From the IMG/VR virus record IMGVR_UViG_3300031760_000034, positions 1 through 64,000 of that record: DNA of 64,000 bases. The stretch is one strand, 5' to 3'. Source of the stretch: a virus. Lineage: Duplodnaviria; Caudoviricetes. The position numbers and the translations under genes were made by a program. Of the stretch, positions 1-50,600 are shown piece by piece (the first letter of the stretch is position 1; each line of letters opens with the position of its first letter). The notes under the pieces were generated by a model. The model saw only the letters and a program-made list of their open reading frames with translations, had not been told where the DNA came from and did no database searches.

Positions 1-153
1 CTTTTTTGTTGTGAAAAAATTTTTTATTTTTTTTTTTGTGTGAGTGTAGAAAGGAGAAGGTTTTCTAAAAATTTTTATTATGTGTATAAAAACGAGAAAT
101 AGTCTACATCGCATCCCCCTCGCTTCGCTCGGCGGGAAGCTCCCCCCTACCCT

Positions 154-182
154 ACCCGCAAAGCTCTTTCACTACTACGTAG
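154..182 (+). promoter_or_regulatory. Early-cassette motif copy 1 (ACCCG + triloop hairpin), putative virion-RNAP promoter
   Basis: ACCCG at 154, then CTAC-TAC-GTAG hairpin at 172-182, upstream of ORF 218. Confidence 0.5.
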
Positions 183-217
183 CAGTTATCAATAAGTTTC
201 ACTAAATCAACAACATC

Positions 218-379
218 ATGGACAAGTTTGCAGTCATCAAGAACTTAGGCAAGGGTTACAATTCCCTCGTAGACAACACTTTCGACAACATCGCAGATGC
301 TACAGCGTACGCTAACATCATGCGACGCAAGAATGATGGATGGTTCTACTATGTCTATCAATTAAATGAGGAGCTTTAA
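218..379 (+). CDS. Small early hypothetical protein, 53 aa (MDKFAVIKNLG...)
   Basis: ATG 218 to TAA 377-379, between a cassette motif and a terminator. Below the ORF-track size cutoff. Confidence 0.65.
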   Translation: MDKFAVIKNLGKGYNSLVDNTFDNIADATAYANIMRRKNDGWFYYVYQLNEEL

Positions 380-397
380 GCTCCTCATTTGTTCTTT
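364..397 (+). terminator. Intrinsic terminator-like hairpin
   Basis: AAATGAGGAGC-TTTAA-GCTCCTCATTT 11-bp stem over the stop of ORF 218, with a T-rich tail. Confidence 0.6.
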
Positions 398-401
398 GTG
401 T

Positions 402-428
402 ACCCGTTGTCTGTCACTATTACATAGT
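402..428 (+). promoter_or_regulatory. Early-cassette motif copy 2
   Basis: ACCCG-ttgtctgtc-ACTAT-TAC-ATAGT. Confidence 0.55.
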
Positions 429-457
429 AGTGTTTAATCATTTAATCAAGTTATACA

Positions 458-628
458 ATGGACAAGTTCTTTATCACAGGCGCTGGTTGTTGTGCAATCA
501 TCCTATCTATTTTGTGCGCTTATCGGTATTTCACTTACGTGCACGCCAGTTATGTGGAGCTTATATGCTCTGTAATGTTCATCATCGTAGCAGGTATGTC
601 ATTCTTTGCTCGCAGATGGTGCAAGTAA
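458..628 (+). CDS. Small two-TM membrane protein, 56 aa (MDKFFITGAGCCAIILSIL...)
   Basis: ATG 458 to TAA 626-628, two hydrophobic segments, same ATGGACAAGTT start as ORF 218, followed by a terminator. Confidence 0.6.
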   Translation: MDKFFITGAGCCAIILSILCAYRYFTYVHASYVELICSVMFIIVAGMSFFARRWCK

Positions 629-638
629 CACATTTTAT

Positions 639-661
639 GGGTCAGCTTCGGCTGGCCCTTT
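639..661 (+). terminator. Intrinsic terminator (UUCG loop)
   Basis: GGGTCAGC-TTCG-GCTGGCCC-TTT. Confidence 0.65.
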
Positions 662-673
662 GAAACTCTGTTT

Positions 674-701
674 ACCCGCTTTCTGTTATTGCTATGCAAT
701 A
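674..701 (+). promoter_or_regulatory. Early-cassette motif copy 3
   Basis: ACCCG-ctttctgt-TATTGC-TAT-GCAATA. Positions 664-704 are a 41-nt imperfect direct repeat of 944-984. Confidence 0.6.
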
Positions 702-727
702 GTATTAACATTTAAACATAGATTGAT

Positions 728-928
728 ATGAAAGAGGTATTGAAGTTTCGTGTCGCTGTTGAGAAGACTGACGGCACATTTGAGATTAGTGATGTAATTG
801 ACAAGTATGAGGATGCCCAGAAATGGCGCCATGAGCGTGAAGCAGCGTTCTTGAAGGCCAATCCAACAGCAAGTTGTTGCCACAGCAATTTGTTGTTTGT
901 TCGCGAGGTTGTTGAGGGTGCACAGTAA
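728..928 (+). CDS. Early hypothetical protein, 66 aa
   Basis: ORF flanked by a cassette motif and a terminator. Confidence 0.7.
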   Translation: MKEVLKFRVAVEKTDGTFEISDVIDKYEDAQKWRHEREAAFLKANPTASCCHSNLLFVREVVEGAQ

Positions 929-942
929 TGTGCACCTTTTTT
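917..942 (+). terminator. Intrinsic terminator
   Basis: GGTGCACA-GTAA-TGTGCACC-TTTTTT. Confidence 0.75.
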
Positions 943-953
943 CAACTCTGTTA

Positions 954-981
954 ACCCGTAATCTGTTATTACTACGTAATA
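954..981 (+). promoter_or_regulatory. Early-cassette motif copy 4
   Basis: ACCCG-taatctgt-TATTAC-TAC-GTAATA. Confidence 0.6.
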
Positions 982-1114
982 GTACGACGATGAGATATTT
1001 GAGAGGCGATGGCCGAACTAGTTAGACTGAAAGATTCGGATCAGCCTCGATTCGTCCGATTCGTCGTACTCATTTAACAACAATGTTTAATCAATAAATA
1101 TAGGAGATTTTATT

Positions 1115-1432
1115 ATGAAGAAGATTCAAGTAAGTACAGTACAAAAGCAGGCTAATGTTGAGGTTATTGACCTTAATTCTTATTTTATCGCCAAGGCGGT
1201 AAAAGCACAGTTAGTGGCACACAACGCAATTGACCCAATGGCAGTCACTGTAAATGAGCCAGTAATCGATGCAAAGGGTCGTGTTGAGAAGGATGAGCAT
1301 GGTGATGATTTGTTCCAGGACATTACAATCATTAACCGAAATCACTTCGAACCAACAGTTGAGCAAATGCAGGCCATTCTTGATGATGTGATTCCATTCT
1401 TAGATGAACTTGTCAAAGCATTTGAAGAATGA
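1115..1432 (+). CDS. Early hypothetical protein, 105 aa
   Basis: ORF with AGGAG upstream; ATGA overlap with the next gene. Confidence 0.8.
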   Translation: MKKIQVSTVQKQANVEVIDLNSYFIAKAVKAQLVAHNAIDPMAVTVNEPVIDAKGRVEKDEHGDDLFQDITIINRNHFEPTVEQMQAILDDVIPFLDELVKAFEE

Positions 1433-1749
1433 AGTACACACTCGTAGCAGCACATGCTAGTCGAGAACAACATAGGGGTTTGATGGTGAAGGCTTATTAT
1501 AAGCACGACCTGTCAAACCCTTTTGAAGTTCCGTACTCAATTGTGGTATTTAATCAGTGGCCTCCAATTGAAGTAGAGGCAGAGGTTACGGTACATAAAC
1601 TCAACGGCATATATGAATACCCAAATGGTAAAAGAACAAGTGAAATACGTGTGTTCAGCATAAAGAATAAAGACAACACATACAAAATGGGATTCAGTCC
1701 GCAAGAGTTGATAGCCAAAAGATTAACAGTATTAGTGAAGGTGGGTTAG
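1429..1749 (+). CDS. Early hypothetical protein, 106 aa
   Basis: ORF ending in tandem TAG-TAA, followed by hairpin 1735-1763. Confidence 0.75.
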   Translation: MKYTLVAAHASREQHRGLMVKAYYKHDLSNPFEVPYSIVVFNQWPPIEVEAEVTVHKLNGIYEYPNGKRTSEIRVFSIKNKDNTYKMGFSPQELIAKRLTVLVKVG

Positions 1750-1763
1750 TAACCCACTTTCAC
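1735..1763 (+). terminator. Terminator-like hairpin
   Basis: GTGAAGGTGGGTT-AGT-AACCCACTTTCAC 13-bp stem. Confidence 0.55.
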
Positions 1764-1807
1764 ATTAGTTAGAGTAACCAGCAAAGAGTGTATTTATAGG
1801 GAGTTTA

Positions 1808-1838
1808 ACCCGCAAAGCACTGTTACTGCTACGCAGTA
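1808..1838 (+). promoter_or_regulatory. Early-cassette motif copy 5
   Basis: ACCCG-caaagcactgt-TACTGC-TAC-GCAGTA. The template strand reads GC-GTA-GC. Confidence 0.6.
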
Positions 1839-2029
1839 GAGAGAACAAAGAAGATAATTAATGTTGAAATGTGAGAATGTAAAACAATTCATTCTCTCGC
1901 ATTATCCTCAAACATTATTATATTATAATCCTCTCTATTTCTTAATACATAGCATTTTATAAAACTTCACGTAGTGAAGTGGCCAATTCGTTGACGAATT
2001 TTTATTGTCAAACTTAATATATCAGAATT

Positions 2030-3495: not shown

Positions 3496-3558
3496 TATAA
3501 GCTGTCGCATCCTTAGATGCCTGATGAGTCTCGGAAGATTGAGACGAAACAGTTTATA
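3496..3558 (+). ncRNA. Type III hammerhead ribozyme
   Basis: Stem III TATAAGCTG/CAGTTTATA, GTC cleavage triplet (cut after 3506), stem I GCATC/GATGC, core CTGATGA, stem II GTCTC/GAGAC, GAAA. Confidence 0.9.
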
Positions 3559-5656: not shown

Positions 5657-5877
5657 GCAAGTGGAAAGCAGGACAACTCGTAACTCTGAACGGTAAGGTA
5701 TATCGCATTCGTAAGGTAGAAACACAGCTATCACATAGAAGATGCATGATGTGTGAATTGCATAATTTCAAATCACCATGTATAGATGCTGCAGATTATC
5801 CAACTGATAAAATAAATTTCAGTATTATCAAATGTGTAGCCAAAATGCCACAAAACTGCATCCCTAAGCGTATCTAG
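5653..5877 (+). CDS. Small Cys-rich hypothetical protein
   Basis: CxxC motif, ATGA overlap, ends in TAG; N-terminus resembles ORF 6637. Confidence 0.65.
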   Translation: MSKWKAGQLVTLNGKVYRIRKVETQLSHRRCMMCELHNFKSPCIDAADYPTDKINFSIIKCVAKMPQNCIPKRI

Positions 5878-5915
5878 GAAGTGAACGCAAAGTAATTAAC
5901 AATCAATGTTAAAGA

Positions 5916-6146
5916 ATGTTGAAAGGTAAAATTCTGAATCAACAGAATCCCCCTCGTCCTAAAAAAGCGAGGGTGGATTCAAATGGCAATGATCGTAGAC
6001 GATTGTTTGCCAAGAGTGGCAATGCCACATTATGCATCGCAAGTGGTTTAACTAAAAACGCATGCGAAGTGCTAGAGGCTCATATTATGGGAGGTATTGA
6101 GAACTTAGGTGGTAAATCTGAGTGCTCATTTATAATAGCTATGTGA
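5916..6146 (+). CDS. Hypothetical protein, 76 aa
   Basis: ORF in a tightly packed run. Confidence 0.6.
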   Translation: MLKGKILNQQNPPRPKKARVDSNGNDRRRLFAKSGNATLCIASGLTKNACEVLEAHIMGGIENLGGKSECSFIIAM

Positions 6147-6147
6147 T

Positions 6148-6537
6148 ATGATTGTACGCAGAATATTAAAATGTGGTGCTGAAGTTGGCAGATACATTGA
6201 AATTACCAAAAAGACCGAAAAAGGTTATTATGGTAAAACGTTGCGTAGTTCTGAAGAGTTCTTTGTTGCTGAAACATTAGACAATTTTAAAGAAGTTGAA
6301 GTTGTTACTATAAGTGTAGGCAAAGTAGAACTCGAAGCTCTCAAATACGCCATGAAAGTACATCACGAACTTACTCCACAATGGGAGAGAGTACTTGAAA
6401 AGAGACCAGAAATAATAAAAGTATGGAATCTACAAGGTGTTGTATATATATGGCCAGCTATGATAAAGAGACGCATCTTTGGACGCGTTCCCAACGTATA
6501 TATTGAGATTAAATCAAGAGAATATGAACCAAAATAG
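6148..6537 (+). CDS. Hypothetical protein, 129 aa
   Basis: ORF in a tightly packed run, ends in TAG. Confidence 0.7.
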   Translation: MIVRRILKCGAEVGRYIEITKKTEKGYYGKTLRSSEEFFVAETLDNFKEVEVVTISVGKVELEALKYAMKVHHELTPQWERVLEKRPEIIKVWNLQGVVYIWPAMIKRRIFGRVPNVYIEIKSREYEPK

Positions 6538-6538
6538 T

Positions 6539-6640
6539 ATGATGGCAAGAGAAAAGATTCCACCAGGCTTCTGGATTGGAGTTGTAGTCTTACTGACTAT
6601 CTTGTTAGTAAGGAACTGCATGGGAGGTGTTAGCCCATGA
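6539..6640 (+). CDS. Micro membrane protein, 33 aa (MMAREKIPPGFWIGVVVLLTILLVRNCMGGVSP)
   Basis: Fills the gap exactly; single TM; ATGA overlap with 6637. Confidence 0.55.
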   Translation: MMAREKIPPGFWIGVVVLLTILLVRNCMGGVSP

Positions 6641-6819
6641 AACATCGAAAACCAGGTCAAATAGCCAAAATTGACGGGAAAATATTAAGATGTGCAAAAC
6701 GTGAATTTGGATGCGAAGGATGTGTACTCAACGACATGTTATTATGTCCTTGTGTTCTTTCAAATCATCCAGATCCGCCTAATTGTATAGACGATGGCAT
6801 AATATTTATTAATGTATGA
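6637..6819 (+). CDS. Small Cys-rich hypothetical protein, 60 aa
   Basis: CxxC plus further Cys residues. Confidence 0.6.
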   Translation: MKHRKPGQIAKIDGKILRCAKREFGCEGCVLNDMLLCPCVLSNHPDPPNCIDDGIIFINV

Positions 6820-7682
6820 TGATTTGCTATATCGTTAGAAGCTGTGGTTCGTGAGAATAGCAGCTTCATTATATTAATGCATAGAAATCAGCTAAAGCGG
6901 AAACCTCAAGCCCGCAAGTAACTCTAGCGTGTTCGGCGCAGTATGAGTTACGAATGATGAGAGGGTGCAATTGCAACGATTGTGGAGACACTGGATTTGC
7001 TCAGATAGTCAGTGTTAAAAGAGGAATCTGAGAATGGACGCGTACTCAACTCTGCAATCAACCTAGTACCAAGGTTAATCGGTATTCGGACATATGTATA
7101 CCTGTCCAACTAAGCAGAAACTTAGCACAAAATGTGCGGATCTGAAACGAAGCTTAGACTCAGTGGGTCAAACTGAGTACCCCACAGTACGTAGTTCCGG
7201 GCAAAGCCGGGAGAAAGCTAGGCGTAGGTGCGAAACTAACTGTGGGAACACATAAGTTGTGATATTCATAAGTGTAATATTTTAATTTTACCAATGTTAC
7301 CTATTTTGTACTATCAAATTGGCTTTTTTGAATCTATTTCAAATCTTGAAAGCAAAATAATGCTACATTGTGAAATATAGTATTATTGAAACAACACTCT
7401 GTTGCGAAACCCAGTGTTGATTTTTATCACAACTACACCATTGGTTTGGTGACTGTACCGGAAGATTGAGATCGAAATCAGGGAAAAATTAGGCACGAAC
7501 CCCAGGCAAATCTCATGAGAACAGTCACACCCCATAATGTCCGAGGTTAAGGGGCACGTTTTCGCACGTGCGAGGTTGGAAGATGTAAAGCTTGCAAACA
7601 TCTGGTAGGACATTTTTAACTCGAATCTTTTTGGGTTTATTATCATATTTTATTTTATTAACTTCTTAAACATTTATCAAAA

Positions 7683-9756: not shown

Positions 9757-9897
9757 GGAGCATGGTCAATGTAGGAAAATTTAAGGTGAGGTTATAAGTG
9801 ATTTGAGGCGTCGTATACCCTTGAGTGGACCAGCTATCCATGAGAGGTTAGAAAACGCGTCAGAAAGCCTGTAAATAGCCTTAAATCGAACGTTTCG

Positions 9898-10183
9898 GCT
9901 GATCCCCGATATGTTCAGCAAAGAAATCTTAGCGGTCTGAGGTAAGTTGTTCGGACGAGGGTTCGAATCCCTCCGGCTCCACCCCAATCTCTTGATGACA
10001 ACACGGAAAGACGTGTATATCCCTCTCCGGAGGGAAACTGGGGTCGATAGGATTTAGACGGGCAATGGAAGTAAAGGCATTAACGCTTTGATATAACAAT
10101 AACTGGCAATTATAATATTGCAGACTACACGGGCCTCAAGGAGGCAGCGTGAAGTCGGTGGGACAGACTACCAAAGTGTCTGT
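9898..10183 (+). ncRNA. ssrA: Circularly permuted (two-piece) tmRNA
   Basis: The 3' acceptor part (GGAC-GAGGG-TTCGAAT-CCCTC-CGGCTCC-A, 9953-9981) lies upstream of the 5' part (GGGGTCG...TTAGACGGG from 10040). The two pair with a G3-U70 wobble. Tag ORF 10105-10152 = GNYNIADYTGLKEAA*. Outer boundaries are approximate. Confidence 0.85.
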
Positions 10184-10187
10184 TTTA

Positions 10188-10236
10188 GAGTGAGAATCGA
10201 GAAGGGATAAGGGGTTCGAATCCCCATCTCACTCCA
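10188..10236 (+). other. tRNA-like mini-helix (acceptor + T arm only)
   Basis: GAGTGAGA/TCTCACTC stem with GGGG-TTCGAAT-CCCC T arm; no D or anticodon arm. Confidence 0.6.
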
Positions 10237-10296
10237 ATAGTGGTAGAGGCTTACTGGGGCTCGCCTGACACCACGAGAAAAACAAACGCCCCATAT

Positions 10297-10370
10297 GGAC
10301 TTATAGCTCAGTTGGTTAGAGCAGCAGACTCATAATCTGAAGGTCCCAGGTTCAAGCCCTGGTTGGTCCA
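10297..10370 (+). tRNA. tRNA with CAT anticodon (Ile2 or Met)
   Basis: Full cloverleaf: GGACTTA/TTGGTCC, D arm GCTC/GAGC, loop CT-CAT-AA (10331-10333), T arm CCAGG-TTCAAGC-CCTGG. Confidence 0.9.
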
Positions 10371-10385
10371 CAAATGTCCTTCAAT

Positions 10386-10456
10386 TGGATCATGGTGTAA
10401 TGGTAACACTACAGGTTTTGGTTCTGTCATTCGAGGTTCGAATCCTCGTGGTCCAA
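10386..10456 (+). tRNA. tRNA-Gln(TTG)
   Basis: TGGATCA/TGGTCCA acceptor (U1-A72 type), ACAGG-TT-TTG-GT-TCTGT anticodon arm, CGAGG-TTCGAAT-CCTCG T arm. Confidence 0.92.
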
Positions 10457-10460
10457 CAAT

Positions 10461-11561: not shown

Positions 11562-12116
11562 ATGAAAGCTAATACTCCACGCATAACTGAAGAGGAGATA
11601 GCTCTTATCAAAAGTGCTCAAGCAGGTAATATATCTGCTTATAATAAACTTTACCATCTATATAGTGGATTTACTACAAATCTATTGTATCAGTTCATCA
11701 AAGATTATGATGAGGCTAGAGATATAAATAATCTAGTATGGCTAAAAGTTTATAATAAACTCTCGAAGTTCACAGACTATTCGTCATTCGGCGGATGGCT
11801 GAGAATATTAACTAATCGCACAGCTATTGATTATCTACGTAAGCTAAAACCTTCAATTTATATTCCTGATGACTTGAGTTGTAATCAAGATCAGAATATG
11901 ACTAGTGAGGAATCACAGACTGATTTAACTTCTTATAATCAAGTATTGGAGGTTATTAGACAATTCCCAGAAGACATTCGTAGGATCTTTGAATTGCATT
12001 ATATAGAGCATCTTAGCGTAAGTGAGATTAGTGAAGTTACCAAGATTCCTACCGGTACGATTAAATCGCATCTTAGTAGGAAGCGTAAATTAATTAAAAA
12101 ACTCTTAAAATTATGA
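11562..12116 (+). CDS. ECF-type sigma-70 factor
   Basis: Region 2 (DEARDINNLVWLKVY, FGGWLRILTNRTAIDYLRK) and region 4 HTH (LSVSEISEVTKIPTGTIKSHLSR). Confidence 0.9.
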   Translation: MKANTPRITEEEIALIKSAQAGNISAYNKLYHLYSGFTTNLLYQFIKDYDEARDINNLVWLKVYNKLSKFTDYSSFGGWLRILTNRTAIDYLRKLKPSIYIPDDLSCNQDQNMTSEESQTDLTSYNQVLEVIRQFPEDIRRIFELHYIEHLSVSEISEVTKIPTGTIKSHLSRKRKLIKKLLKL

Positions 12117-35690: not shown

Positions 35691-38600
35691 TTATTTACAT
35701 TGATTTTCTCTTAAGTTTTTACCAAGATTAGCTAATTCCGTTATCTAGTTTTCCTGAGAACCAAATAATTCTAACTATTTAGGTTCGTTTGGATCTTCAG
35801 ACAACTTAAGCTTATTATACTCATTTGTATTATTTAATAACTACCAAACACCATTCTTCCTAAATGCCCTGAAATTAGTTCCATATAATTTGTTAACCTT
35901 TTTTACGTGAGATAATTTTTCTTTACTAGAATACCCAGTACTTTCTACTACGTAAGAATATAAGTGATTATATATACTCTATACAGACCAGCCGTAATAA
36001 TTTCCGTTTATATCTGGTTTATAGTTTTTCTAGTCTTCAAACAAAGGTGTTACTTTTGATACGTAATCTATTCCATTTTCTCCATTAGATATTTCAAATA
36101 CATTATTTTGTAATCCTTGTTTAGAATATATTCTTATGGGAACATTTACAAATTCGTCGTCTATAGTAACGTTTCCGTTGAGAGTAAAGAAGAAAGATTT
36201 TTCAAACACAAACACAGCACCTTTATTGGATTGTGTAAGAGGATGATGCGCTCCTTGTGGAACCTGCAAGCTATCTTCCGCTACATCTTTAGGAAGTTTC
36301 ATAACGGTATCAAAATATTCATCGTCTGTATCTTCAGGAAGTTCTTTTACTATTTCTCCGATAACTCTTCTGTTTTCAAAGTTTACATGGTTACAATCAT
36401 TTAAGGCTTTATGATTCACTTTTATATTATCATTCTCCTTTGCATATCTATCCATCAGTTCCTTATTTGGATTAGTAAGCAAAACAACCAACGCATCTTT
36501 AATAGTTTTCTCTAACGATTTATATTCTTTTGTTATACCAAACAATTGAGCAATTGCAGAAATTAATCGCTGGAATACGTTTTCTCCTTTATGTCTACGG
36601 TCAAAATCTTTTATATGCTCTACAAAAGAAGGTTTTCCAAGTTCTGCGACCATTTCTGCTGGACTAGTATATCCGTATGTATCGTTGTCCTATGTCCAGA
36701 ATGAAAAAGCAGCTTCAATATCTACACCAACCTTTGGCTATCCGTTTTCATAGAAGTGTTGTTTTATAAAATCTTCTTTTAATAGACGATAACACTCTTC
36801 TATTTCTTCAATAGCTATTCTAATCTCCTGTGGTAGTTTATCTCTGTTTGCTGTTTCAAGATAATAAGATGTAGCAGCATGAATGGCTTCGTGTAGCAAA
36901 GTGTTTGTCTACATATATTCTGGATTAGAATTATATAATATTTTATTTTCACTAGCTATAAATCTGCCACTTACGTCCTCATCTAATGTTGCTGCCTCAA
37001 ATACTATATCAGAATTACGTAGAGCATTGAACACAATATCTGTAAGTTTAGATTCAGATGAACCTTCTGGGTATTTAGACTTTAACAAATTGTAAACTTC
37101 GTCTATAGAAGAAGTGTTATTATAATTTAATGTCTCTTTAAACACATTTCTTATAGCTTCTTTACCGGTATCTGTTATTTCTCTAGTACCAATTACAGCT
37201 GCGTGCTGAGTAAGTCTAGGAGTATCTATTGATTTAAATGTAATCAAATCTAACCATTTGTTTGAATTCTAATCAAAGAAATATACAGGAATTCCTCTTT
37301 GTAATGCCCTTTGTACAGCGTATGCAGTTCCGCCATTTACTTGTGGTTTATAAGAATGAACTGATTTTGTAGGATCTGTTGTATTATCTGGTTTAGAATA
37401 ATCTCTAACCATAGTATACGTACCTATAGCAAACACAGCGTCCGCTTTATCTGCCTACATCATATCTCTACGAACGAGTTTTCCTGCGTATGTGTCTTCA
37501 GACAATACATTTCTGTTAATTTCTGCAGCTACTTGTTCATATTCAGCGTTCAATCTATCTTTCCATTCATCAGACAAAGAATCGTAATCGTTTGTAGTAT
37601 ACTCTTTTACCTTTATACCAAACTACCTCGCCATTATAGCCCATTCTGTGTCAGAACCTATCGCACCGCCAGAATAGAATTCAGCAGTAGATGTGTCAAA
37701 TATAAGGTTATCGTTTTGTGCTTCTACAGAAGGTTCATAAGTTCTAGCACCAATCTCTTCAGCTTCTTGTTTATTTTTAGCAGGTTGTTCGATTTCAACA
37801 ACTCCATCTTCTGCTAAATGCACACCGGCTGCGTCTTTCATAAGTTCTGCTAATACTGGGTCTTTTGTAAATGCATTTATCATAGCCATTTCTGTACCTA
37901 CGTTATTAGCAGCACTTAATTTGCCCAAGAATGCCGTCATGATATCAGAAACGCTTCCTCCTTGTATACCCATAGCTTGTTTAGCTATCATCATTGACTC
38001 TGTAAATTGAGCGCTGATTCCAGCTATAGCAGTAGATTCCTATATACTAGCATCGCTTCTACGCATCTCATATACTGTATCGTGCGGGAACTTATTACCT
38101 TTAGGATCAACCATAACGTATATAAGTTTTCCGTTTGTTGTATACGAAAGCTTCTTATATATAGTGTAATTTCTAGGAGAATGAGGATCTGAACAATTTC
38201 TCTTTATCTTGATATATTCCTCGTCTGAGAACTGCTCTATATCTGCATTTTCTTTTATTAACATAATAGGAATTGATACTTCTGGAGCATTTCTACCTTC
38301 GTAGTAATACCTACCAGTATAATATCCTTTTGCCTCAAAGAATACGCCATCTGCTTTTATAGTAGGAATAAACTTATCGTCAAACCAGTTGTTAAGTATA
38401 ATCTCCTCTACGTTTATAGGAAGTTCATCAGTACTGTTTTGATACAACTCAAGCTGATCTTGCATATATTGAGCATAACTATCTTTTGTTGTATCGTTAT
38501 CATAAGAATTAAGCTTCCATGAGTTAGGTATATACTTAAATAAGTTGTTGCCAGAATTACCTCCAGATGTTATATATGCATACATAATAAGGTCTCTTGC

Positions 38601-41600
38601 AAACATTCTTATTTCTGGGTGCAACGTATCGTTTAACAATTCATCCCAGGCTTCTGCCATATCATCTTCGTTGACATGATCAGAGTCCATGAAATTAAGA
38701 GTTTTTACAAACTTAACATCTTGGTATGTGCCTGGTTGTGTACCAGCATTATAAGCATTATATCTGAGCTCTTCGTGATGTTGGAATCCTTGAACAAGAG
38801 AAGCAAGTAAGTAATTTTTAATAGAGCCATCTACAGAACGCATATCAGAATATGCAGGATCTGTCATTATCTTTATACGAATATCTTCAAGTCTGTCGGA
38901 AATAGTATTATTACCGCTAACAAGGCCTTTGATATTTATATTCATATTCTAAGCCCACGTATTAAAGAATCCAGCTCGTATATAGTTCATTATCTGTTTA
39001 CTTACAGCCTTTCTCATGTCAGCAGAAGCATTCTTCTCACCAATTTGGTTAAGAATTCTGTCTACTTGTACCTAGAATTGGTTTGTAGACTCTATGGTAA
39101 ACGATCCCATTATATCCATAAACAGATCTAGCGCGTTGTTAGTTTTGTCTTTAATATAACTATCGTTATAGTAATCTGACAAATCTTCAAACAACCCGTA
39201 ATCATTGCCTGGAAGATTGAATAGTCTATCAACGCCTTCTCTGTACGCCATTTGTTCAGTCACGTTCTTACCCTGTTTTCTAGTATCAATTTTACTATAT
39301 TTTACAAGATCAGAAAGCTGTTGTTCATATGGCTAAAATTTATCCTTTGCCCTATATACCAAATACTGAATTTCTGCAGCTGAAAGGTTTACATTATCTT
39401 GCACTTTATACATCCTAGCATGCCCATTCATCGGAATGTGTTTCTTTGATATTTGATGTAAAATATCATTATTTTTACTAAGAAGTATTTGAATAGCGTC
39501 GTCTACAGAAATTCCTCTAACTTTTTCGAAGTATCCGTCAAGCACTTTATTCGCTTGTTTTAGAGTACCGACATTCTTAGGAAGACTAAAATTACTCTTT
39601 ACAAAGTTATATACAACTTCTTCTACAGCTTCATTTTGTCTACGAGATTTACTTCTACTCGATTCAGAACCGTATTGACTTGCAGCGTTATTGTATGCAT
39701 TAGCCATTTCTACCATAATAGGTTGAGTTGTAAAGTAGAATGTATCTTTACCGAATCCAGTTCTAATCATAAGATTTACTAGATTATAAGTATAACTGTT
39801 TACATTCAACCTTGCGATATATGGATCTTTGGCTACGTCTACGTGTGCATTTATAAGTCCAGATATCCAAGAAAGTATAGAGTTTCCGTATCTATCAGAA
39901 GACTGGTCGAGCCTATACATTCCTAATTGACCTAAGAACCCATCTTGCTTAAACTTAACGCCATACAACATAGTAAGAATGTGGCTGTTGTTGTTAAGAG
40001 CAAATGGTCCAATACCGAACTTACCTGTAATAAATTCTGTCTTAGTAGATGCGTTTGCCCATAATGAATATGGAGTAAACGGATCAAGCGGCTTTTCAGC
40101 TTGTCCTTCTTCTATGTCTTTAATTATGTCTTTAAGAAGTTTAGTGTCACCGTCAATAGACGCATGATTAGAATGTGCAGTTCTATTTACGTTCTACTCG
40201 TTTTCAGACTTAGAATCTTTAAGAAGAGCAATATAGTCGCTAAGAAGTCTATTTGCATAATACTCATGAGAACCTTCTTTAAAGCTTGTATTAGCTTTTC
40301 CGTTCTTTACATCATAGTAGAACCTAGATAAGAAGAGTTTATCGATATCGAAGTCAGCACCTGTAATCTTAGTAAATTCTTTAGGAAGTACAATAGTATC
40401 TCTCACTACAGGAAGAACATCTACACAACGTAATGCGTGTATTGATGATTGCGCCTGAGTAGGAATACGAGATCCAACTACATTTGCAGTAGCGTTACTC
40501 CACTCTCCATTCTTCTTTCTTCCGCTTATTATGCCGTTTTCTATAAGCCATTGTTTGGCATCTTCAAACGACTTTTTACGTTTCTTAGGAACTCTTTTAC
40601 GTATTTCAGAACCGTTTTCATCTGTAGTTGTTGTATAGAGATATTGACCTTGATCATCCATCTCATATACAATATGACCTTCATCATCTCTTACAACATC
40701 GTCTGGTATAATATCGTCAAAGAAATCAATAGAAAGAACACAGTCCATGGATCCTTCCTCATTTATCATTTGAAGTTCTCGTCCTTCATAAATAGATGCG
40801 GGCAGGTCTTCTTCATTTTGTACTGTAGTCGCCCCTTCCATAGCCCAAGCAGAACGCTGAATAAACGCAGCTCCAGGAGTATTTATATCGATTACATTCT
40901 TATTGATCATAGATGTAACAATACTCTGTATCCACTCAAGACTATTTTGAGCTACAGGAGGAATATACATGGCAGGCTCGCCGTTAGCATCGAGAGTAAT
41001 ACTTACAGCATCGATTGCTTCTTGACTAGCTCCTCTAGATGCGAGTTCTTCTTTAAGGAATTTAGACAGCTCTTCTATCTTTATTTCTTTAGTGGTAATC
41101 TCCTCGCCATTCTCTCCAGTAGTTTTAGTTTCTTTTATAAACCTTTCACGTACTTTCTGTTCTCCAATATTAGAAATCTGATTTATACAATTCATAATAT
41201 CATTTCTAACATCAAGAGCAGATGCTGTACGGAACGTTCTGTTACCATTTTCGTCTACGCTTTCAAGAATAGTATAATCGCGTCCTGGTATAATACTAGC
41301 CATTACAACTTTGGTCATCTGTGTACCCATTTTGTTTGTAAGGCTTCCATGAGGATCTGTATTGAACTGTTTACGAATATATTTGAAATCTTGTTCGTAC
41401 TTGTTGAATGTAAACTAGCTGAATGGAGGTTGAGGCTTCCAATTCTAATTACCAACGTCACCGTCTATAAAGTTGTTTTCGTTTGTCGGATCGTAGTCTT
41501 CTTTGAATTCAGACATTACCATTGGTTTACTTCCTTGAGATCCAACTTTCACAGCAGAGTTGATCATAAGCATGTGCACGCCTTCTTTCTTCATCTTATC

Positions 41601-44600
41601 AAAGATTTTGGCAGTAGCACCTGTAGATATACATTTGAACATTGGGAATATAGCCATCTTATCATAATAAGGAGCTGCTATTCCGTTAGCAAATCTAAAT
41701 CCGTATGCAGTATACTTTTGATTACCTATTACTGTGGTAAGCACATCCTAATAAGCCTTCTATAATGTAAGAATGTCTTTGGTTGTATAAACCTTACCGT
41801 CTACTTCCTAACCTCTAAGAATCTTAAAAGCTCTCTCTATCTTAGAGTCCCATGAACCAACCATACGTAGTAACCATTCAGCCATTTCATCGGTAACATA
41901 TGCTGCACCGTCAGCTACATCTATATCAGACATGAAATCAGAAGACTTCTTCTTGGCATTCTTAGTAAGCATGTCGTATATATCAGCATTTTCATTCTAA
42001 AGAGCCTGTTTTATCTCATCGATAGACATATTTTCTATTTTCTGAGAAAGTTGTTTAGCCTCTTCAGAATTACTATTTGCAAATGTAATACCTGCCTTAT
42101 CAAGTTGGCTTCTCATATATGCAGAACGCAACTCTCCGTCTTCGATCATCTTCGATAAATCATCTTGAAGAGCAGATCCAATCATCTCATTGTCTACTTC
42201 TGCACATGTATATTTAGTAGGAATGCCAGGTATATCAAGAACATTATTTTGTCCTGTAGATATAAGTCCACCAAGTCGCTTATGTTGATCTATACTTCTA
42301 TCAATAAGTTCTCCATTCGAACCATATTTCCATTTAAAGAACGCAGGATGACCGGCATACAGTCTTTCTACTTCTTGTATAGAAATATTAGAAGCGGCAG
42401 ATACTCTGCTTAGGAACGCGGCGATAGCCATAGATTCCCTTTGTTGTTTATTAGATATGTGCTTATAATTTTCAGAAATAAGTTTGATTTGCTAAGCATC
42501 TAATAATTTGTTTTCATATCTGAGTATAATAGGGATCTTCTCGTCGTTTGATACTTTCTTTATAAGTCCTAAGTCTTCTGCGTACTTAAGCTCGTTTTCT
42601 ACCTGTTTGTTCAGAGATCTAGTAAGAAGTTTAAATTGATGTTCCTTTAATTGTTGTTCATTTACATGGATCAAACTAGACCAATTAGAATCGCCTTTTT
42701 TTGTTTTGAGATAATACATGCCAGGTTTATCTGGGTCTGGTATTCCAAAGAAGTATGCTTGAGCTGTTTTCCAGTTAGCAATCTCATCTTTATATTTTGT
42801 ACTACCTTCTTCGTGAACTCTATTAAAAGACACCCAGTTGCCATTCTCATCATATATACCAGTAAGTACGCCAAATCTACCACCTTGAACGATTGTGTGT
42901 CCGTCGTATTCGTTTCCTTTGTGATAATTCATCACTTTCTACGAATCATCGAGAGGTGGATGTTTTGTACCTTCTTCGTCAGTATACCCTCTTACTTGTT
43001 TTATACATTCTTCAACGGCTTTCTTCTCGCAAAGAGCATATTGCAGTAATTGTTCAAGTACTTGCCTATCTTGAGACATGGTATATTTACCATTTCCAAG
43101 ATCTGTAAATGTATTTATGTGTGTAAGTCCTGGGATAGTAATACCAGTCAAATATGTCCATGTCTTCTTATCGGACATTGTTGGGAATATAAGACCTCCT
43201 TCTTGTGTCAGAATCTGGCATTTAGTAATATAATCTTCAGCTGGAGATATTTCGGCATAATCCTAACCCATGTCGCCCTTCTGGTCTGTTCTAAATCCAG
43301 CAACAGTAACTACCTTTAATTTACTTCCATCTTCAACTTGCTTTATTACTATAGAACCAATTTTTCTTGAGCCTTGTTCCATGTAATTGTAACTGAAAGA
43401 TTTCAGATCGTTGATTGGACCTTCATCCCCAGTTAAAGAAGCGTTTATATCATCTGTAACGTCTGTAATAAGACTATTCTCAGATATTACATAATAACGG
43501 TTTCCTTTTGTAGCAAGTACACTAAGCTGATCATGGTCGTGTGTATATTTATACTTTGCGTTAGCAAGCATTCCTATAAAACCAAATGAGGCGAGAGCTG
43601 TATCGATAGACTTTCCGTTAAGAGTACCATTGGGAGTGATATTTAAAGATTTTGTAACTTTATTATAACATCCTCTCAACCAATCTAAGAACGGAGTAAT
43701 GCTAGATGGACCAGTTGACTCAAACATTTTCATCAACGCAGTGTGATCAGAAGAACCATACTTAAGTCTAAGTGTATAGTTGAGTTCATCTTTACTAAAT
43801 TGTATACCAAGTTTTTGTAATGTGTTACAGAACTCGTCTTTTACATAATCAAACTGATCTTCCTTTGTTACATCAAGTTGTGTAGCTCTTACTTTACCAT
43901 CTTCTCCTTTAAAATTAACTGTAACAGTCCCTCCAGAAGAAACGGCCTTCTTTACGTCAGTGAAGAAATCATATATATGCTGGAATACTTCTGGCGAGTA
44001 TCTTCTATCAGTTCCTTTTCTAAACTTCATTTGATATCCAGAAGTAGTTTTCTCGAGATATTCACTTCCATTCGCAAACAACTACGACCACACAATTTTA
44101 TACTCCTTAGCGTTATAATCACTATCTGTGTTCTAGATAGTAACATTCCAAGTTCCATCTTGAGATCTGTTAGCTTTACCTATTACATATTCTCCTTTAG
44201 CTGCATGCAAAGCTACTAGAAGCTGACTAAATGAGGCTTCTGCATCTGCGTCTCCCTGCTGTGCTTTATCATATAAAACTTGTACAACGTTTCTATGTAT
44301 ATAGTCGAACATTGCGTTGTCTTTACCAAGTTTCGCAAGCCTATTAAGAAGTTCTTTAGAATTTCGACAATCGTGGCATTGGTTTACAAGAGTATTAAAT
44401 ACATACTTAACGTCAAAATATTCAACTAGACCTTCGTCGTTCAATATATTCTTTGTAACCCTCTTACCTGCTTTATAACCAAAACGTTTCTTTGGTATTC
44501 TAGCAAGTATAAACTTAACCTTAGCTCCAGTTCTGCTAAACTGAGAAGACTCATGAGAATATTTGAGTTGATCGAACGAAGCCTCTAATACACCCTCTCC

Positions 44601-47600
44601 AGATTCTATATCCTAAACATTTTCAGCCTCGTCGTCTTCATTTCTATTTATTTCAAACGTGTTGGCTAAATATGTACGTAAGTCGTTTTCAACTACATCT
44701 ATATTCTCTACCAATTCTTGAAGGGCTAACGCACCATGAGCTCTACTATTAATCATTCTTTGATAGTTCTGATCACGCTCAATAGCAGCCTTGCTTATAC
44801 GTAAGTTCTCAAGACCCTCTCCAGTTATACTCACATCGTTGGTCCTAAACACAAGATATACAAGAGTATTGCGTAGTACTCTATACTGATATCTATTGAG
44901 AATGTGTTTAAATTCGTGACCACCAATAGAGAATGGTGCAAACGCTCCATGAGACTATAAGAATCTTTGTACTTTCTCTGCATTCTAGCTCCATAAATGT
45001 TTTGTAGCGCCCATTCTAGTCATAACATAGAAAGTATACAGTCTAAAGTCTCCTATCTTACCCATAATCTTAGCTACCTACGATATAAACTTAAACGGGT
45101 TTCTTATCGCTCCGAGATTAAAAGTAGGTCTATTCTCCATGTAGTATCTGAACTCTTCAGCAAGACCTTCTCTGATTTGCTTATTGCTTAACAAATCTGC
45201 ATCGTCTTTATATTTAATATGCATCTTTCTAGCATAAGCCTTATAGAGCATCTTTCTTGTCTTATCACCAAGAAGTAGTTCTACTATCTTGTGGAATGCC
45301 TCGTGGTATACGGTACCCTGCGGTGCATATGGGTCAAACAACATTTTACCACTGAAATGACATAAGCCTAACACAGAAGCATTTGTTCTAGATATTTCTG
45401 CAAGTTTGTCTGTGACGTTCTTATCTGTAATTTCTTCGCCAAGAACTTTGCTTAAGAACTCGTTTGCCTTTTCTACGCTAAACTTATCTTTGGCTTTTTG
45501 ACCAGTCATTAGATCCATATCTTCAAGGCTGTCGTCTATACCAAGATCGTCAGTAGTAGGAATATCGTCAACGAGATCTACTGCTGGGTTTTTAGCCGGT
45601 TGTTCTGGCTGTTGTGGAGTGTCGTCAAATACTAAAGGAATGTCTTCGTTGAAGTTAAGAAGCGGATTTGTAAATCCTGTAAATTTAGTTTGAACAAATC
45701 CTCTACGCATAGCCCAAGCAAGACCGCTTAATCCTTCTGGGTGTTCAAAATCTCCAAAGTCTTTCTCATCAAACACTATAGTACTCTGTCCAAATGTGAG
45801 TTTTCCTCCATTTCTGAACACTTCTTTACCCATTTCACTCTCTTTGAACTCAGTAAGTCCATGTAAAGGATGAGAGAAATTATCGTTTCCCTTATTTACT
45901 CTACATTCTAAGAATTCATTGTATGTGAACGTCTTGTTGTGGTGTGCAAGTAAGAAATCCTTTAATGTCTTCTAATCTTGTTCATCGAGTATGTTAAATC
46001 TACCATTATTTGGTATCTCCACACCTTCTCCAAAGTTTCCGTGCAGTATTACATAACGCTGATCATTCTTATCGTACTCAATATATCTAAGAGACTACTG
46101 GTATGGGTTATATCGCTCGTCTAATGCTTTATATCGTATAAGCATTCTGAGAACCTGCATTCTAGTAAGTCCTTTATATATTCCATCTTCAAAGAACACT
46201 TGGTTCTCCATTGCATGAGCTCCATAGTCTCCATTATCCGCCATATACTTACCAGAAAGCAGATCGATGATAAGCTGAGCGTCTCCTTCTGTAACTGGAG
46301 AATAATGTACGTTTACTGGAACTTTCTGGTCTTTATCTATTTCAGGATAAGGAGGGTGTACCATCATTACCATACCACCATCTGCAGGCATTATCTTATC
46401 TGGTCTAGTTCTAGAGTATTCGTAAACTTCATGGTGACCACCAGCCTAACCTGGAACATATGCTATTGGGGTTCCATCTTGTCTATATTGAACTATGCAG
46501 AATGTATCTTGAGAAGAGCTAAACTCTATGTCATACATAGTATCATCGGCAAACAGTCCCATTTGCTCAAACGTACGCAATGTATTTCCTTCTATAATAC
46601 CGTTACTTCTACTAATTGCAGACTTTTGCGGCATTACAAGTCTACCACCAGCTTCGCCAAGCATTCTGAGTACTTGAGAATAGAACAGTTTTCCTTTTCC
46701 ATTTGTACTATCTGAAGTATGTATGTCAATAGGAGAGAATTGATGTCCTCCATACATAACGTTCAACTGTATTTTAGGAGTCCTCGTGCTCGTTCTTGTG
46801 GTGAACCAGAATACTCCATTCTCTAAGAAGTCTGGGTTGGCACTAACATCGGAAAGTCTTACTCCAGATCCATCAGTAGCAACAGAATCTTCTATATTAT
46901 AGCCGCGACTAGCTTCCATTCCTGTATGAGTAGTAGTATACTATGCCCATGGCCTTTCGTATCTTACAGAAGGAGCTTCTATTGTAGGAGGCACTGTAGG
47001 AGGTTCCTAAATATTCTCGTAGAGTTTGTTGTATTCGTCAATATCTCCCTTAACGCGTATATAATTATCAAGAGATCCTAAATTCAGCTGCACATCGTTG
47101 TCCTCTGCAGCATTTAACAGCATTTGTACGTTTGAGAGGGCTTCAGAGTATAACCTTGCGTTGGTGTCAGTTTTAGCACTAATGAAATGATCCCACCTCA
47201 TTTGAAGTTCAAGAACCCACTTTTCGAAGTCTTCGTATAACTCTTTTTCGAACAACTCTCTAGAATGTAGGTTTTCCCACAACTGATCATCAGTAGGATT
47301 AAGATGTTCTGGTACAGTCTGATTCTATTGATCTTCAAACTGCTGAATATCTCGCTTCACCCTTTCTTTAAGAGCATCAAACTCATTCTAGAATCTTATA
47401 GCAGCTCCATTTACTCCAGCATACTGTTGTTTAGATAATACTTTACCATTCCATTTAGATGTAAACCTATTCCATCTGGACATAAAGTTATCAACAAGCT
47501 GTTTTGTCGCATCCGTTACTTTATCCCAGTCTTCTTTAGCAGTTTCAAAATCAGTGTTGACATCGTTTGAAGTAAATATAGTATTACTAGAAGGAGAATA

Positions 47601-50600
47601 CTCAGCTTCTATTTGAGCAACTTGTTCATCATAATCTTCGTAATCTTCTACCTACGGAGTTTCTTCTTTTACTTCTCCTTCAGGCTCTTGTATCTAAGGT
47701 TCAGATGTACTTGTAGCAGCCGTTTCTGTGGCTTCTGAGGCGTTTTCTGCAGGCTCCTGTACAGTTGTTCCAGGAGTACTCGGTTCGGGCTCTGTAGGCG
47801 TTTCTACGGGCTCTGGAGACGGTTGTTCCGATGAGCTTTCTGATGATTCAGGAGCAGCTTCTTCGACTGGCTGCGTTTCTGTCTCCATGTCTTCTACAGA
47901 CTGTTCTTCTTCTGATGTAGTGGCTTCAAATGTATCGTGTATCTGTTGTCTAAGCTCTTCATCAGACTTTACAGATGCTAAATACTTATCTATAAGGTCT
48001 AATGCTGACTTCTTTCTATCAGTAAAATCAGTCTGAGCATTCTTATAAGCTTCCTACATTTCAGGACTTGTGAGGAACTCCATACCAGAAACTTTACCAC
48101 CAAGCAGCAAATATTGTATCGCGGTAGCCTCTTCTATATCTGTTATATAGTTTGCAGAATCGCGATACAGATCACGAAGTACATCATGTAATTTTTGATT
48201 TGGAATAGTCTTAAAATCATCTACAGTGGACGCATTCTTTATTGCCTTAAATCTTGATAACGACTGAAGTCTTTTGATCTGTCTGTTTACAGAACGAAGA
48301 CGTCTCTTATCTGCAGTAGTAGGCTCTGCCGTCATCTCAAGTTGATCTCTAAGAGTAAATAATGCGTCAAGGGATGCTATTTCTTTTATATAACTTACAA
48401 GATTTGGTATAGCTGCACGTATACCTTGCATATTATACAACGTTTCGCCTCCGAGGCCGCCTTTGATGGCACCGTCCCCTTCATGCTATACTTCAGTATC
48501 AATGAGATCAAACTCGTCATTAATCTTCAGAAGATCTCCGTAAGTCATTGTACCGAGAATCTCCTATATTCCTCTGCTCTCTTCTTGATTACCACTTACA
48601 AGACCGTTTACAAGAGAATTGGCACTCTTCTCAAGCTCATTCAAACCAGTAATACCTTGTTTAGCAAGATCTTTGGCCCACATTATAAGGCCTACGTAGT
48701 TACCAAACTTCTTTGTACCTGGTTTTATATCAAGTTGCTTTGCGCCATCTTGAACATTCTTAGAATTTGCAGTATCAAACACATCTTGATATGCCTTTCT
48801 CTGCTCTTGCACGTCTTCTGCAGTGAAGTTTAGCCCATCGGTACCACCATTTCGCTGTTCTGCAGTAGTTGCAACATTCTCCATAGCATCAAATGCCTTC
48901 ATAATACGCTCATATTGCGTAGGAGACGTCTATGTTGCAAGATAAGAATTATTGGCAATAGTAGTTCTATCAGCCATCTTGTGCGCAAGCACATTGTTTA
49001 CAACAAAGTTACTAGCTTTGAGATCTTGATATGCTCCAGTAATGGCATTGAACCCTTGTATAGTGGCAGTATGGCCAAATCCACCCAAGAATCCGCCTTT
49101 CATGTTGGCTATAAGCTCTTTATCTGAAGTAGCGCCAAACATATCGCCAACGAAAGAATACGCAGCTCTAGAACCACCAGCAATATCGTTTATAATAGAG
49201 TCCATAAGAGTATCACTCTCACCAGAATAAGCACCATCTGCGTATTGCTTTCCGTTTAAATACTGCTTACCTTCTTCAATTGCCTCAGACCAACCTGCTC
49301 CAAATACTTTAGATGCAAAATCTACAACATTTTTACCTATTGCTTTGGCTCCAAGAAGTTTCTTAGGCATTTGCTCTATGATATCGGCTGCAAATCCTAA
49401 GCGCTTAGTAATACCTCTAACAGCACTTTTTGGTAATGCACGACCAACCGTCTTTAATCCAGCCTGCACAGCTTTTCCAGCAAGTACCAACGGGAATGCT
49501 ACAGAACTAGCTACAGCTCCTCCTAAATCAGATTCTGCAAAGTCTTTGGCGAAGTTCTTAGTAGCCATCAATACTTTTCCGGCAGTAGGATGCTCGTGCA
49601 TAAAGTTGTACATTCTCTTAAACCTAGAGGCCTTTGCTCCAGGAGTAATCATACTAGCTTTAGCCAATTTAGTGACAGGACCTAAGAAGTTCAATCCTGC
49701 TTCGAATATCTCACTGCCTATTACAGCAGTCATATCATTCTTATACAGGTTGTTCAAACCATATGTAGCTACTTCTGCAATGTCTTTGATCTTTTCTTTT
49801 GGTTCATAAATACCTGCTGCCATAGCATACATAAGTTCGTCGTCGGTAGCGTCCTTCTTACCAAGAGCTTTTCTACCCTCCTTCTGCCAGCGCTCGTATT
49901 CTCCGGCTTTGTTTAGCCTATCTATGAATAACTGCTGATAATTATCTCCAACTTCAGTGTCATTCTCATAATGACCTCCTATAACACCAAGACCTGTAGA
50001 AGCTAAGCCAGCTGCAGCTAAACCAGCAGCACCGCCTGTGCCCGCAGTAGCAGCCGCCATCGCAGCAAGACTAACAGCAGTAGAAGCAAGTTGATATCCT
50101 CCAAAAGACATAGAGGATCCTATAAGACCAGGCATCCCGTATATATACGTATCAGGATCAGTAAAGTTAAATTCCGTTACAGCATCCGCCTTCTTTTTAA
50201 ATTCTTCTGAAGGGTTATATCCACTAGACTTCCAACTCTTTAGCTCCCTTATGTTGTCTGCCATCCTATTTAATAGTTCCGGACGTTTTTTATCGAATTC
50301 CTCGCGTATTTGTCCAACAGCTCCGTCTATATTCTGCGAATATTGTTTAATCTAAGACTTTATTTCTAAAGGGAGATTATTATATCCGTGTTTCGCTATA
50401 ATTGCATCCAATGCTTCTAGGTTATACTTAGCATCTTTTTTACCTTGAGGAGCCCATCCGGTACCAGAATACATGGCCGCTTCATCAGTATTGCCAAAAT
50501 AACTAGAAGCGTCACTAACTATCTTCTGTGTATTTTGGTTTTCAACCTACAATTTTTTTATCTCTTGAGATGTTTGATTAATTAAATCTTGCACATCTTT

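Follow-up and report, generated by a model that had tools for sequence, protein, structure and literature searches.

In phage N4, transcription starts 11 nt from the loop centre of the promoter hairpin, whose extrusion needs supercoiling and single-stranded DNA-binding protein (SSB). The two-barrel RNA polymerase (RNAP) of crAss-like phages is unrelated to the T7-like virion RNAP of N4, and at most works like it without being a member of its family. At the heart of the N4 promoters lies a GNA loop whose sheared G:A pair stabilizes the hairpin, and position −11 must be A or G (PMC4496689). The crAss-type enzyme gp66 makes rifampicin-resistant early transcripts and prefers single-stranded DNA (ssDNA), and its promoter is not known (preprint 10.1101/2020.03.07.982082); the literature that we searched describes no promoter for a crAss-type virion RNAP. 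The related two-barrel virion RNAP of P23-45, gp96, has its own AT-rich promoter motif at pre-early genes (PMC10770324), and for the non-virion RNAP of AR9 the same paper cites recognition of the template strand in promoters. In T4-type phages, indels and swaps between close relatives join within the PeSL motif (PMC2839356, PMC4122927). Here we analyze the first 64,000 nt (“the window”) of IMG/VR virus record IMGVR_UViG_3300031760_000034, a 74,979-bp linear contig rated 74% complete, in which five copies of a short module, consisting of two sequence boxes and a small hairpin, are strung between small genes within the first 1.85 kb.

We propose that each module is a lineage-specific early promoter in which two boxes, ACCYG and then CTGT, are followed by a 6-bp stem closed by a 3-nt loop. 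Selection would act on this hairpin as single-stranded template-strand DNA with a G-N-A loop, the loop centre lying 20 or 22–23 nt from the first box. Each module would begin an early cassette, mono- or bicistronic, that has an intrinsic-type terminator at its end. The injected, virion-packaged crAss-type RNAP putatively encoded at 35691–51548 would recognize the extruded template-strand hairpin together with the boxes, an N4-like mode of recognition by an unrelated enzyme. These 30–40 nt, recurring every few hundred bases, may in addition act as homologous-recombination points at which cassettes are gained, lost and swapped. Taken as a whole, the case for this reading seems to us evenly balanced, its parts differing in strength. 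What is new here is the assignment of a covarying hairpin to the template strand by the polarity of its wobble pairs.

Like N4 P1–P3 (PMC4496689), the modules have a 5–7 bp stem and a 3-nt G-N-A loop on the template strand, with stem bases that vary but stay paired. Also as in N4, several copies are clustered before what would be the first expressed genes, and the candidate reader is a giant virion-packaged RNAP of a kind preferring single-stranded templates. The candidate enzyme, however, is a two-barrel one (DFDID, QDE-1/gp66-like) whereas that of N4 is T7-like, and the modules carry two extra upstream boxes (ACCYG and CTGT). Two further differences speak against a simple copy of N4: the stems here are AT-rich and much weaker, those of N4 being GC-rich, and the central loop base is mostly T where N4 has a purine. 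With the P23-45 and AR9 promoters the modules would share the character of a private, phage-specific motif ahead of the earliest genes and, for AR9, recognition of the template strand; as far as PMC10770324 presents them, those promoters have no sequence resemblance to the modules and no hairpin is described. Phage phi14:2 (preprint 10.1101/2020.03.07.982082; Nature 2021) has a virion RNAP of the same class, its early genes are rifampicin-resistant and its enzyme is active on ssDNA, but there no common early motif was found, whereas the motif here is sharp and known from its sequence.

Module Copies in the Window

The bit scores given here come from a covariance model of the bottom strand, built on 22 copies from the window and eight loci (L105–L107, L111, L112, L117) in related contigs.

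154–185, + strand: module copy 1; ACCCG at 154–158, CTTT at 166–169, hairpin CACTAC-TAC-GTAGCA at 170–184, then G; 41.0 bits, E 2.3e-8
402–430, + strand: module copy 2; ACCCG, CTGT, hairpin CACTAT-TAC-ATAGTA at 415–429 (5 bp: ACTAT-TAC-ATAGT); 38.8 bits
674–702, + strand: module copy 3; ACCCG, CTGT, hairpin TATTGC-TAT-GCAATA at 687–701 (6 bp); 46.1 bits
954–982, + strand: module copy 4; ACCCG, CTGT, hairpin TATTAC-TAC-GTAATA at 967–981 (6 bp); 46.5 bits
1777–1791, + strand: degenerate box pair without a hairpin (ACCAGCAAAGAGTGT), 31 nt upstream of copy 5
1808–1839, + strand: module copy 5; ACCCGCAAAG, CTGT, hairpin TACTGC-TAC-GCAGTA at 1824–1838 (6 bp); 46.5 bits

The initial annotation had placed five ACCCG/spacer/hairpin copies on the + strand of the first 1.85 kb, and all five are there, with CTGT in copies 2–5. 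Aligned, they read ACCCG, 3–7 nt, CTGT (CTTT in copy 1), a 6+3+6 palindrome and G. In copy 1 the top strand forms four Watson-Crick pairs (CTAC-TAC-GTAG) and the bottom strand six pairs including two G·T, while the template strand of copy 5 reads CTGC-GTA-GCAG. A tandem hairpin-less box ahead of the last module, like that at 1777–1791, is also found in L105, L107, L111, L112, L117, and L122, and in all lineages the last module has such a box pair before it.

When a degenerate 20-mer covering CTGT and the hairpin (CTKTYAYTRYTAYRYARYRG) was searched on both strands of the 64 kb with at most one mismatch, these five sites were the only matches, against 0.01 expected from shuffles. Within the 74,979-bp contig, 5 of the 15 ACCCG pentamers on the + strand fall in the first 1.85 kb. 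The covariance model found no sixth copy in the window, the next match scoring 16.7 bits (E 0.19), and the rest of the 75-kb contig has nothing like the module. A loose definition, ACCCG plus any nearby 4-bp triloop hairpin, is not above chance (shuffle mean 4.7 per genome), so that the significance resides in the shared boxes, loop, spacing and clustering. That the module is a real conserved element we regard as virtually certain.

Covariation and Strand Polarity of the Hairpin

Compensatory changes in the stem, originally noticed among the five copies, hold in a covariation analysis across relatives: at five of the six stem pairs both partners have changed, transversions included, among 20 distinct rows. 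On the bottom strand 99.2% of the stem cells pair, nine of them as G·T, vs. 91.7% on the top (gene-sense) strand, where there is not one G·U. None of the shuffles attained the observed pairing on either strand or the covariation score. Orthologues of copy 3 in L105, L106, L117, and L118 read TGTTGC-TAT-GCAACA, a compensatory change from A-T to G-C.

Twenty-four distinct 6+3+6 hairpins comprise 128 Watson-Crick cells, 12 cells that are G·T on the bottom strand, 2 that are G·T on the top strand and 2 others. The polarity of the wobble pairs, 12 bottom vs. 2 top, gives a one-sided binomial p = 0.0065, although the cells stem from paralogous as well as orthologous copies and are not fully independent, an estimated 8–13 events corresponding to p of about 0.004–0.02. 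Read on the mRNA-sense strand, the same hairpins have 12 C·A or A·C mismatches and 2 G·U cells. The bottom-strand loops are GTA in 17 copies, GAA in 4, ATA in 2 and TAA in 1, so that 21 of the 24 are GNA; the centre of the GNA loop is thus T in 17 copies and A in 4, whereas N4 needs A or G at −11.

A duplex operator would leave no strand asymmetry and an mRNA helix would leave the opposite one, and the structure selected would therefore be a hairpin of the template strand. On these grounds the hairpin is very likely under selection as template-strand DNA rather than as an mRNA hairpin or a duplex operator. The notion of N4-like hairpin promoters put forward in the initial annotation is to that extent favoured, by the G·T polarity (12 vs. 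2) and the predominance of GNA (21/24); the candidate enzyme lies outside the T7-like family of the N4 polymerase and would at most work like it.

Conservation Across Relatives

A degenerate-pattern scan of metagenomes returned three contigs (L104 = L105, and L106), 68–78% identical to the first 2–3 kb of the window; starting from homologues of cassette genes 3 and 1, some twenty further short contigs were reached. The covariance model recovered its training copies and found the module in the independent contigs L118–L128 at E 1e-7 to 1e-11. Matches were confined to the cassette array and all lay in gene orientation, save three partial ones of 12 bits on the palindromic core. In L118, five matches occur at 5687–7426, ~3.4 kb past the strand switch, within the 11.9 kb of that contig that were analyzed. 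Across the contigs compared, the module is kept in place in roughly ten lineages and is specific to the array.

Beyond these lineages the motif gives way to others. Homologues of gene 1 in other lineages carry different private motifs at the same place (AATCCAAAC...TCTNT in L129, TTGTTTTGCTGCGC in L127), and G016, the closest long relative, has a two-copy motif of its own, a pattern that fits a rapidly co-evolving phage-encoded reader. Exact-pattern scans of IMG/VR with three versions of the motif gave no match outside this genome, and in 20 related contigs ACCCG...CTGT was no more frequent than in controls. A megablast search with the first 6 kb as query gave no match among phage records.

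Other structures were also observed in relatives. L129:1665–3265 contains a repeated upstream motif, AATCCAAACATAGTCTNT..., with a downstream GGATT complement, near the gene-1 homologue, and the repeated upstream motif TTGTTTTGCTGCGC of the L127 gene-1 homologue lineage lies at L127:5066–6745. An “AACCC plus 8-bp hairpin” in relatives was considered as a distant version of the module and rejected, as it sits within a conserved gene (NPDNEVYKVYLNN) and the covariance model misses it. In this rightward NPDNEVYKVYLNN gene AACCC is followed after 6–8 nt by an 8-bp perfect hairpin, in L099 (G013) at ~7749 of the oriented region and likewise in G001, G004, G009, G012, G015, L003:8068, and L105; in G012 the protein differs (NNPKLSIYNTYIKN), yet another 8-bp perfect stem occupies the same place. 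This suggests a DNA or RNA structure under selection within coding sequence. “Direct terminal repeats” of relatives were also rejected as true genome ends near the array; that of G013, 127 nt long, we take to be the assembler’s circular k-mer overlap. At the strand switch where the rightward block begins, relatives G005–G008 and G010–G013 have a conserved CCCCCTAAGAACCCCCTAATATA element followed by an AT palindrome.

Cassette Organization

The genes, terminator-like hairpins and leader of the array, in amino acids (aa) and folding energies where applicable, are as follows.

218–379, + strand: cassette gene 1, 53 aa, no known family; headed by copy 1
363–391, + strand: terminator-like hairpin after gene 1; 13-bp stem, then UUCUUUGUGU; −18.0 kcal/mol, z −5.9
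458–628, + strand: cassette gene 2, 56 aa, hydrophobic, orphan; headed by copy 2
639–658, + strand: terminator-like hairpin after gene 2; GGGUCAGC-UUCG-GCUGGCCC, then UUUGAAA; −17.6 kcal/mol, z −4.5
728–928, + strand: cassette gene 3, 66 aa, orphan family with 5 homologue clusters; headed by copy 3
914–939, + strand: terminator-like hairpin after gene 3; GGGUGCAC...GUGCACC, then UUUUUU; −23.7 kcal/mol, z −5.3
982–1075, + strand: structured leader from module 4 to gene 4; 94 nt, closing stem GTACGACGA/TCGTCGTAC; −30.7 kcal/mol, z −2.2
1115–1749, + strand: cassette genes 4 and 5, 105 and 106 aa, stop/start overlap, one bicistronic unit
1735–1763, + strand: terminator-like hairpin after genes 4–5; 13-bp stem, weak U tail; −19.9 kcal/mol, z −4.6
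2030–2800, + strand: first gene after the array, 256 aa, no family; follows copy 5 after a ~190-nt leader

Copies 2–5 are each preceded, as the initial annotation had claimed, by an RNA hairpin that is strong (−18 to −24 kcal/mol, z −4.5 to −6) and runs into a U-rich tail; the layout of promoter, gene and terminator given there is, by gene positions and RNA folding, a real arrangement. The companion claim that every copy precedes a gene applies to copies 1–3, whose hairpins stand 26–35 nt from the ATG, and through the 94-nt leader to copy 4; it fails in this form for copy 5, where the ~190-nt leader intervenes before the gene at 2030. A 33-aa open reading frame (ORF) at 1861–1962, after copy 5, has no ATG-started counterpart in L105, as read by eye and not from a list of L105 ORFs. 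The leader at 982–1075 is near-identical in L105, and cassettes of the other type lack it. The cassette proteins had no matches in Pfam or PHROGs, and gene 1 has 36 homologous protein clusters in metagenomes; the 256-aa gene, used as a query for related loci, found no relative.

Toward the end of the leader that follows module 5, at 1964–2005 (+ strand), lies a hairpin of 7 bp whose top-strand loop is GTA (ACTTCAC-GTA-GTGAAGT), followed by a terminator-like AATTCGT-TGA-CGAATT and T5; the 256-aa gene beyond has no module of its own. Ahead of the first module, 20–153 (+ strand) contains two tandem elements, each a T-run plus a GTGTGAGTGTAGAAAGGAGAA-like sequence, with C-rich tracts (CCCCC...CCCCCC) after them. 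The first cassette is preceded by this same arrangement in L105, L107, L117, L122, L127, L129, G013, and G016, and both this contig and G016 end within ~350 nt of it. Such elements might belong to a genome end or packaging region, serve as an origin, or be promoters of another class.

Exchange of Cassettes at the Modules

Relative to L105, the window has one more cassette (module 2 plus gene 2) and lacks module 3 of L105 with its gene, and the BLAST pieces of the two sequences meet inside modules, at window positions 402–414/664–686 and 962–975 (overlap). Module 4 combines the 5' part of L105 module 3 with the 3' part of L105 module 4 and, judged from this alignment, is the junction of a cassette deletion or insertion. 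Two other genes replace gene 2 in L106, and in L110, which is 94% identical in gene 3, divergence from the window starts in the middle of module 4. The idea that the repeats let cassettes shuffle is thus borne out by indel junctions inside modules in the comparisons with L105, L106, and L110, and comparison of cassette order among related genomes showed gains, losses and swaps with their junctions in the modules.

As in the PeSL cassettes of T4-type phages, a repeated composite of terminator and promoter-like part stands between small orphan early genes, with junctions in the motif. In a PeSL the promoter is an early one of the host sigma-70 type, and the terminator is the stem-loop itself. 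Here, in contrast, the strong terminator hairpin stands apart from the conserved small one, which forms part of the promoter-like section and appears to fold on the template strand. No promoter part of the host sigma-70 type was found at the modules, sigma-70-like sites occurring at shuffle level and none coinciding with a module.

Candidate Readers

The DNA polymerase of this phage is 75% identical to those of the crAss-like phages cr272_1 and cr273_1 (Suoliviridae, Oafivirinae). Its leftward virion-module genes (30044–64000, − strand) are open only when TAG is read as glutamine (TAG=Gln), and the standard code serves for the rightward early arm; among the tRNAs called in the window there is no suppressor. 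Two products of the window come into question as readers of the modules.

35691–51548, − strand: candidate reader, a 5285-aa virion-module ORF, open only with TAG=Gln (54 TAG codons), DFDID at residue 3732
11562–12116, + strand: rival reader, an ECF-type sigma factor with Sigma70_r2 and r4_2, conserved in cr273_1 (49% identity)

The larger ORF is identified as a polymerase because of its DFDID motif and a tblastn match of the surrounding region to the annotated RNA polymerase of IAS virus, and the crAss-type virion RNAP first called there from the sequence is indeed present. The 2201-aa stretch around DFDID had no match by phmmer against PDB or in PHROGs. RNA_pol (PF00940), the T7-like family, had no match in the 75-kb contig, a weak negative as the contig is 74% complete and the controls gave no match either. 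We rank the virion RNAP first among possible readers because gp66 makes rifampicin-resistant early transcripts and prefers ssDNA, and because the virion RNAP of P23-45 has its own pre-early motif. That it reads these modules falls, in our estimate, slightly short of an even chance, and is a weaker proposition than their promoter activity.

Also in the window, ARAGORN called a permuted transfer-messenger RNA (tmRNA; tag GNYNIADYTGLKEAA), then tRNA-Met and tRNA-Gln(TTG), at 9892–10457 (+ strand), and cr273_1 has an annotated tmRNA at the syntenic place. A type III hammerhead match (RF00008) at 3499–3555 (+ strand) spans the full model length and scores 45.5 bits (E 1.2e-7), the gathering score being 48.5.

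Evidence Weighed Against Hairpin Promoters

Several observations count against the proposed hairpin promoters, the incomplete independence of the polarity cells among them. As DNA, the stems are short, AT-rich and weak (−0.9 to −4.1 kcal/mol, z −0.3 to −2.8, barely beyond shuffles), and by nearest-neighbour DNA energies copies 1, 2, and 4 have competing folds; since these energies are not significant, thermodynamic stability is unusable as support. A strand-biased mutation spectrum might conceivably lie behind the wobble polarity, although the composition of four-fold sites does not clearly point to a bias of that kind. The distance from ACCYG to the loop centre falls into two classes, 20 nt and 22–23 nt, and two such spacings would be odd for a rigid duplex-binding enzyme. 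Moreover, the cassette type before the gene that follows gene 3 (L105, L110, L117) keeps ACCCG and CTGT with the hairpin lost or remodelled, and at two loci the boxes are present and the hairpin is entirely absent, so the stem is not indispensable everywhere.

Other points concern the distribution of the module. It is absent from 16 long contigs (59–85% DNA-polymerase identity) and from cr273_1 within the 20 kb upstream of the polymerase gene, yet these relatives have the same kind of RNAP. The array starts ~3.4 kb after the strand switch, behind about ten rightward genes that have no module, and early transcripts of phi14:2 showed no upstream motif in common (preprint 10.1101/2020.03.07.982082). 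Finally, the promoter function of the modules is read from their anatomy; we consider it probable.

Alternative Explanations

The modules could instead be read by host core RNAP with the phage ECF-type sigma factor (11562–12116) or a host sigma, ACCYG serving as a −35-like element, the loop and 3' arm as a −10-like one, and the palindrome being incidental or the site of a regulator. The phage sigma has regions 2 and 4 and is conserved in cr273_1, two conserved boxes ~16–19 nt apart resemble a bipartite promoter, and the middle and late promoters of phi14:2-like crAss phages are of the host-sigma type (preprint 10.1101/2020.03.07.982082). The spacing, however, differs by 3 nt between the two classes, and neither mark of an ECF promoter is conserved: AAC is absent in many copies (box variants TACCCG, GACCTG), as is CGT (loop/arm variants TATGCA, TACACA). 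No Bacteroidota site of the form TTTG...TAnnTTTG (−33/−7) occurs in the region. With its gene 10 kb downstream, the sigma would need to be produced ahead of even the earliest cassettes; it is also kept in relatives without the motif, and it leaves the stem covariation at five positions and the strand polarity of the wobbles unexplained. Transcription by a sigma-directed host enzyme is thus an unlikely account.

The retention of the boxes while the hairpin decays in some copies, together with the hairpin-less tandem boxes before the last module, suggests that boxes and hairpin have separable functions, as they would if the hairpin were the binding site of a phage regulator of extruded or cruciform DNA, such as an early shut-off repressor, overlapping a boxes-only promoter. 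No candidate regulator was identified, and a dimer on duplex half-sites would produce conserved rather than covarying bases and no asymmetry between top and bottom strands; we regard such a regulator site as improbable.

Action of the element in RNA would make it a lambda nut-type boxA/boxB antitermination site, a 5' stabilizing stem-loop or a processing site in read-through from one upstream promoter. A linear box, spacer and 15-nt hairpin do resemble nut sites, and each unit closes with a terminator that an antiterminator could override, but the 12 C·A/A·C mismatches vs. 2 G·U on the sense strand are the reverse of what an RNA helix tolerates, and the top-strand hairpin is very weak as RNA or DNA, which makes this explanation very unlikely. 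That the repeats are solely recombination signals of mobile cassettes (integron attC-like bottom-strand hairpins or PeSL-like homology), with no role in transcription, is the most improbable of these possibilities despite the indel junctions inside modules and the recognition of attC sites as folded bottom strands, because no tyrosine recombinase was found in the contig (Phage_integrase, PF00589; controls positive in 14/14 genomes), the hairpin is 15 nt long vs. 57–141 nt for attC and has no extrahelical bases, and cassettes behind terminators still need a promoter, nothing else being conserved there.

Implications

Phages of the crAss-like group are among the most abundant gut viruses, and the one experimental study of how their injected RNAP reaches the early genes found no motif common to these. 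Our tentative proposal, which we hold to be somewhat less likely than not, is that a two-barrel virion RNAP reads a template-strand GNA hairpin plus two boxes. The hairpin promoter of N4 would then have been reinvented convergently by an unrelated enzyme, and Crassvirales would have a first defined promoter for their injected polymerase; its specificity would turn over between close lineages, and the modules would drive cassette exchange. The module is an oligonucleotide-sized, sharply defined substrate with natural compensatory variants, and it comes with a strand prediction, namely that the template strand should accept G·T and its complement C·A. If the proposal is true, two unrelated virion polymerases would have converged on hairpin promoters, and the exchange of modules would account for the reshuffling of the orphan early-gene repertoire in these phages.

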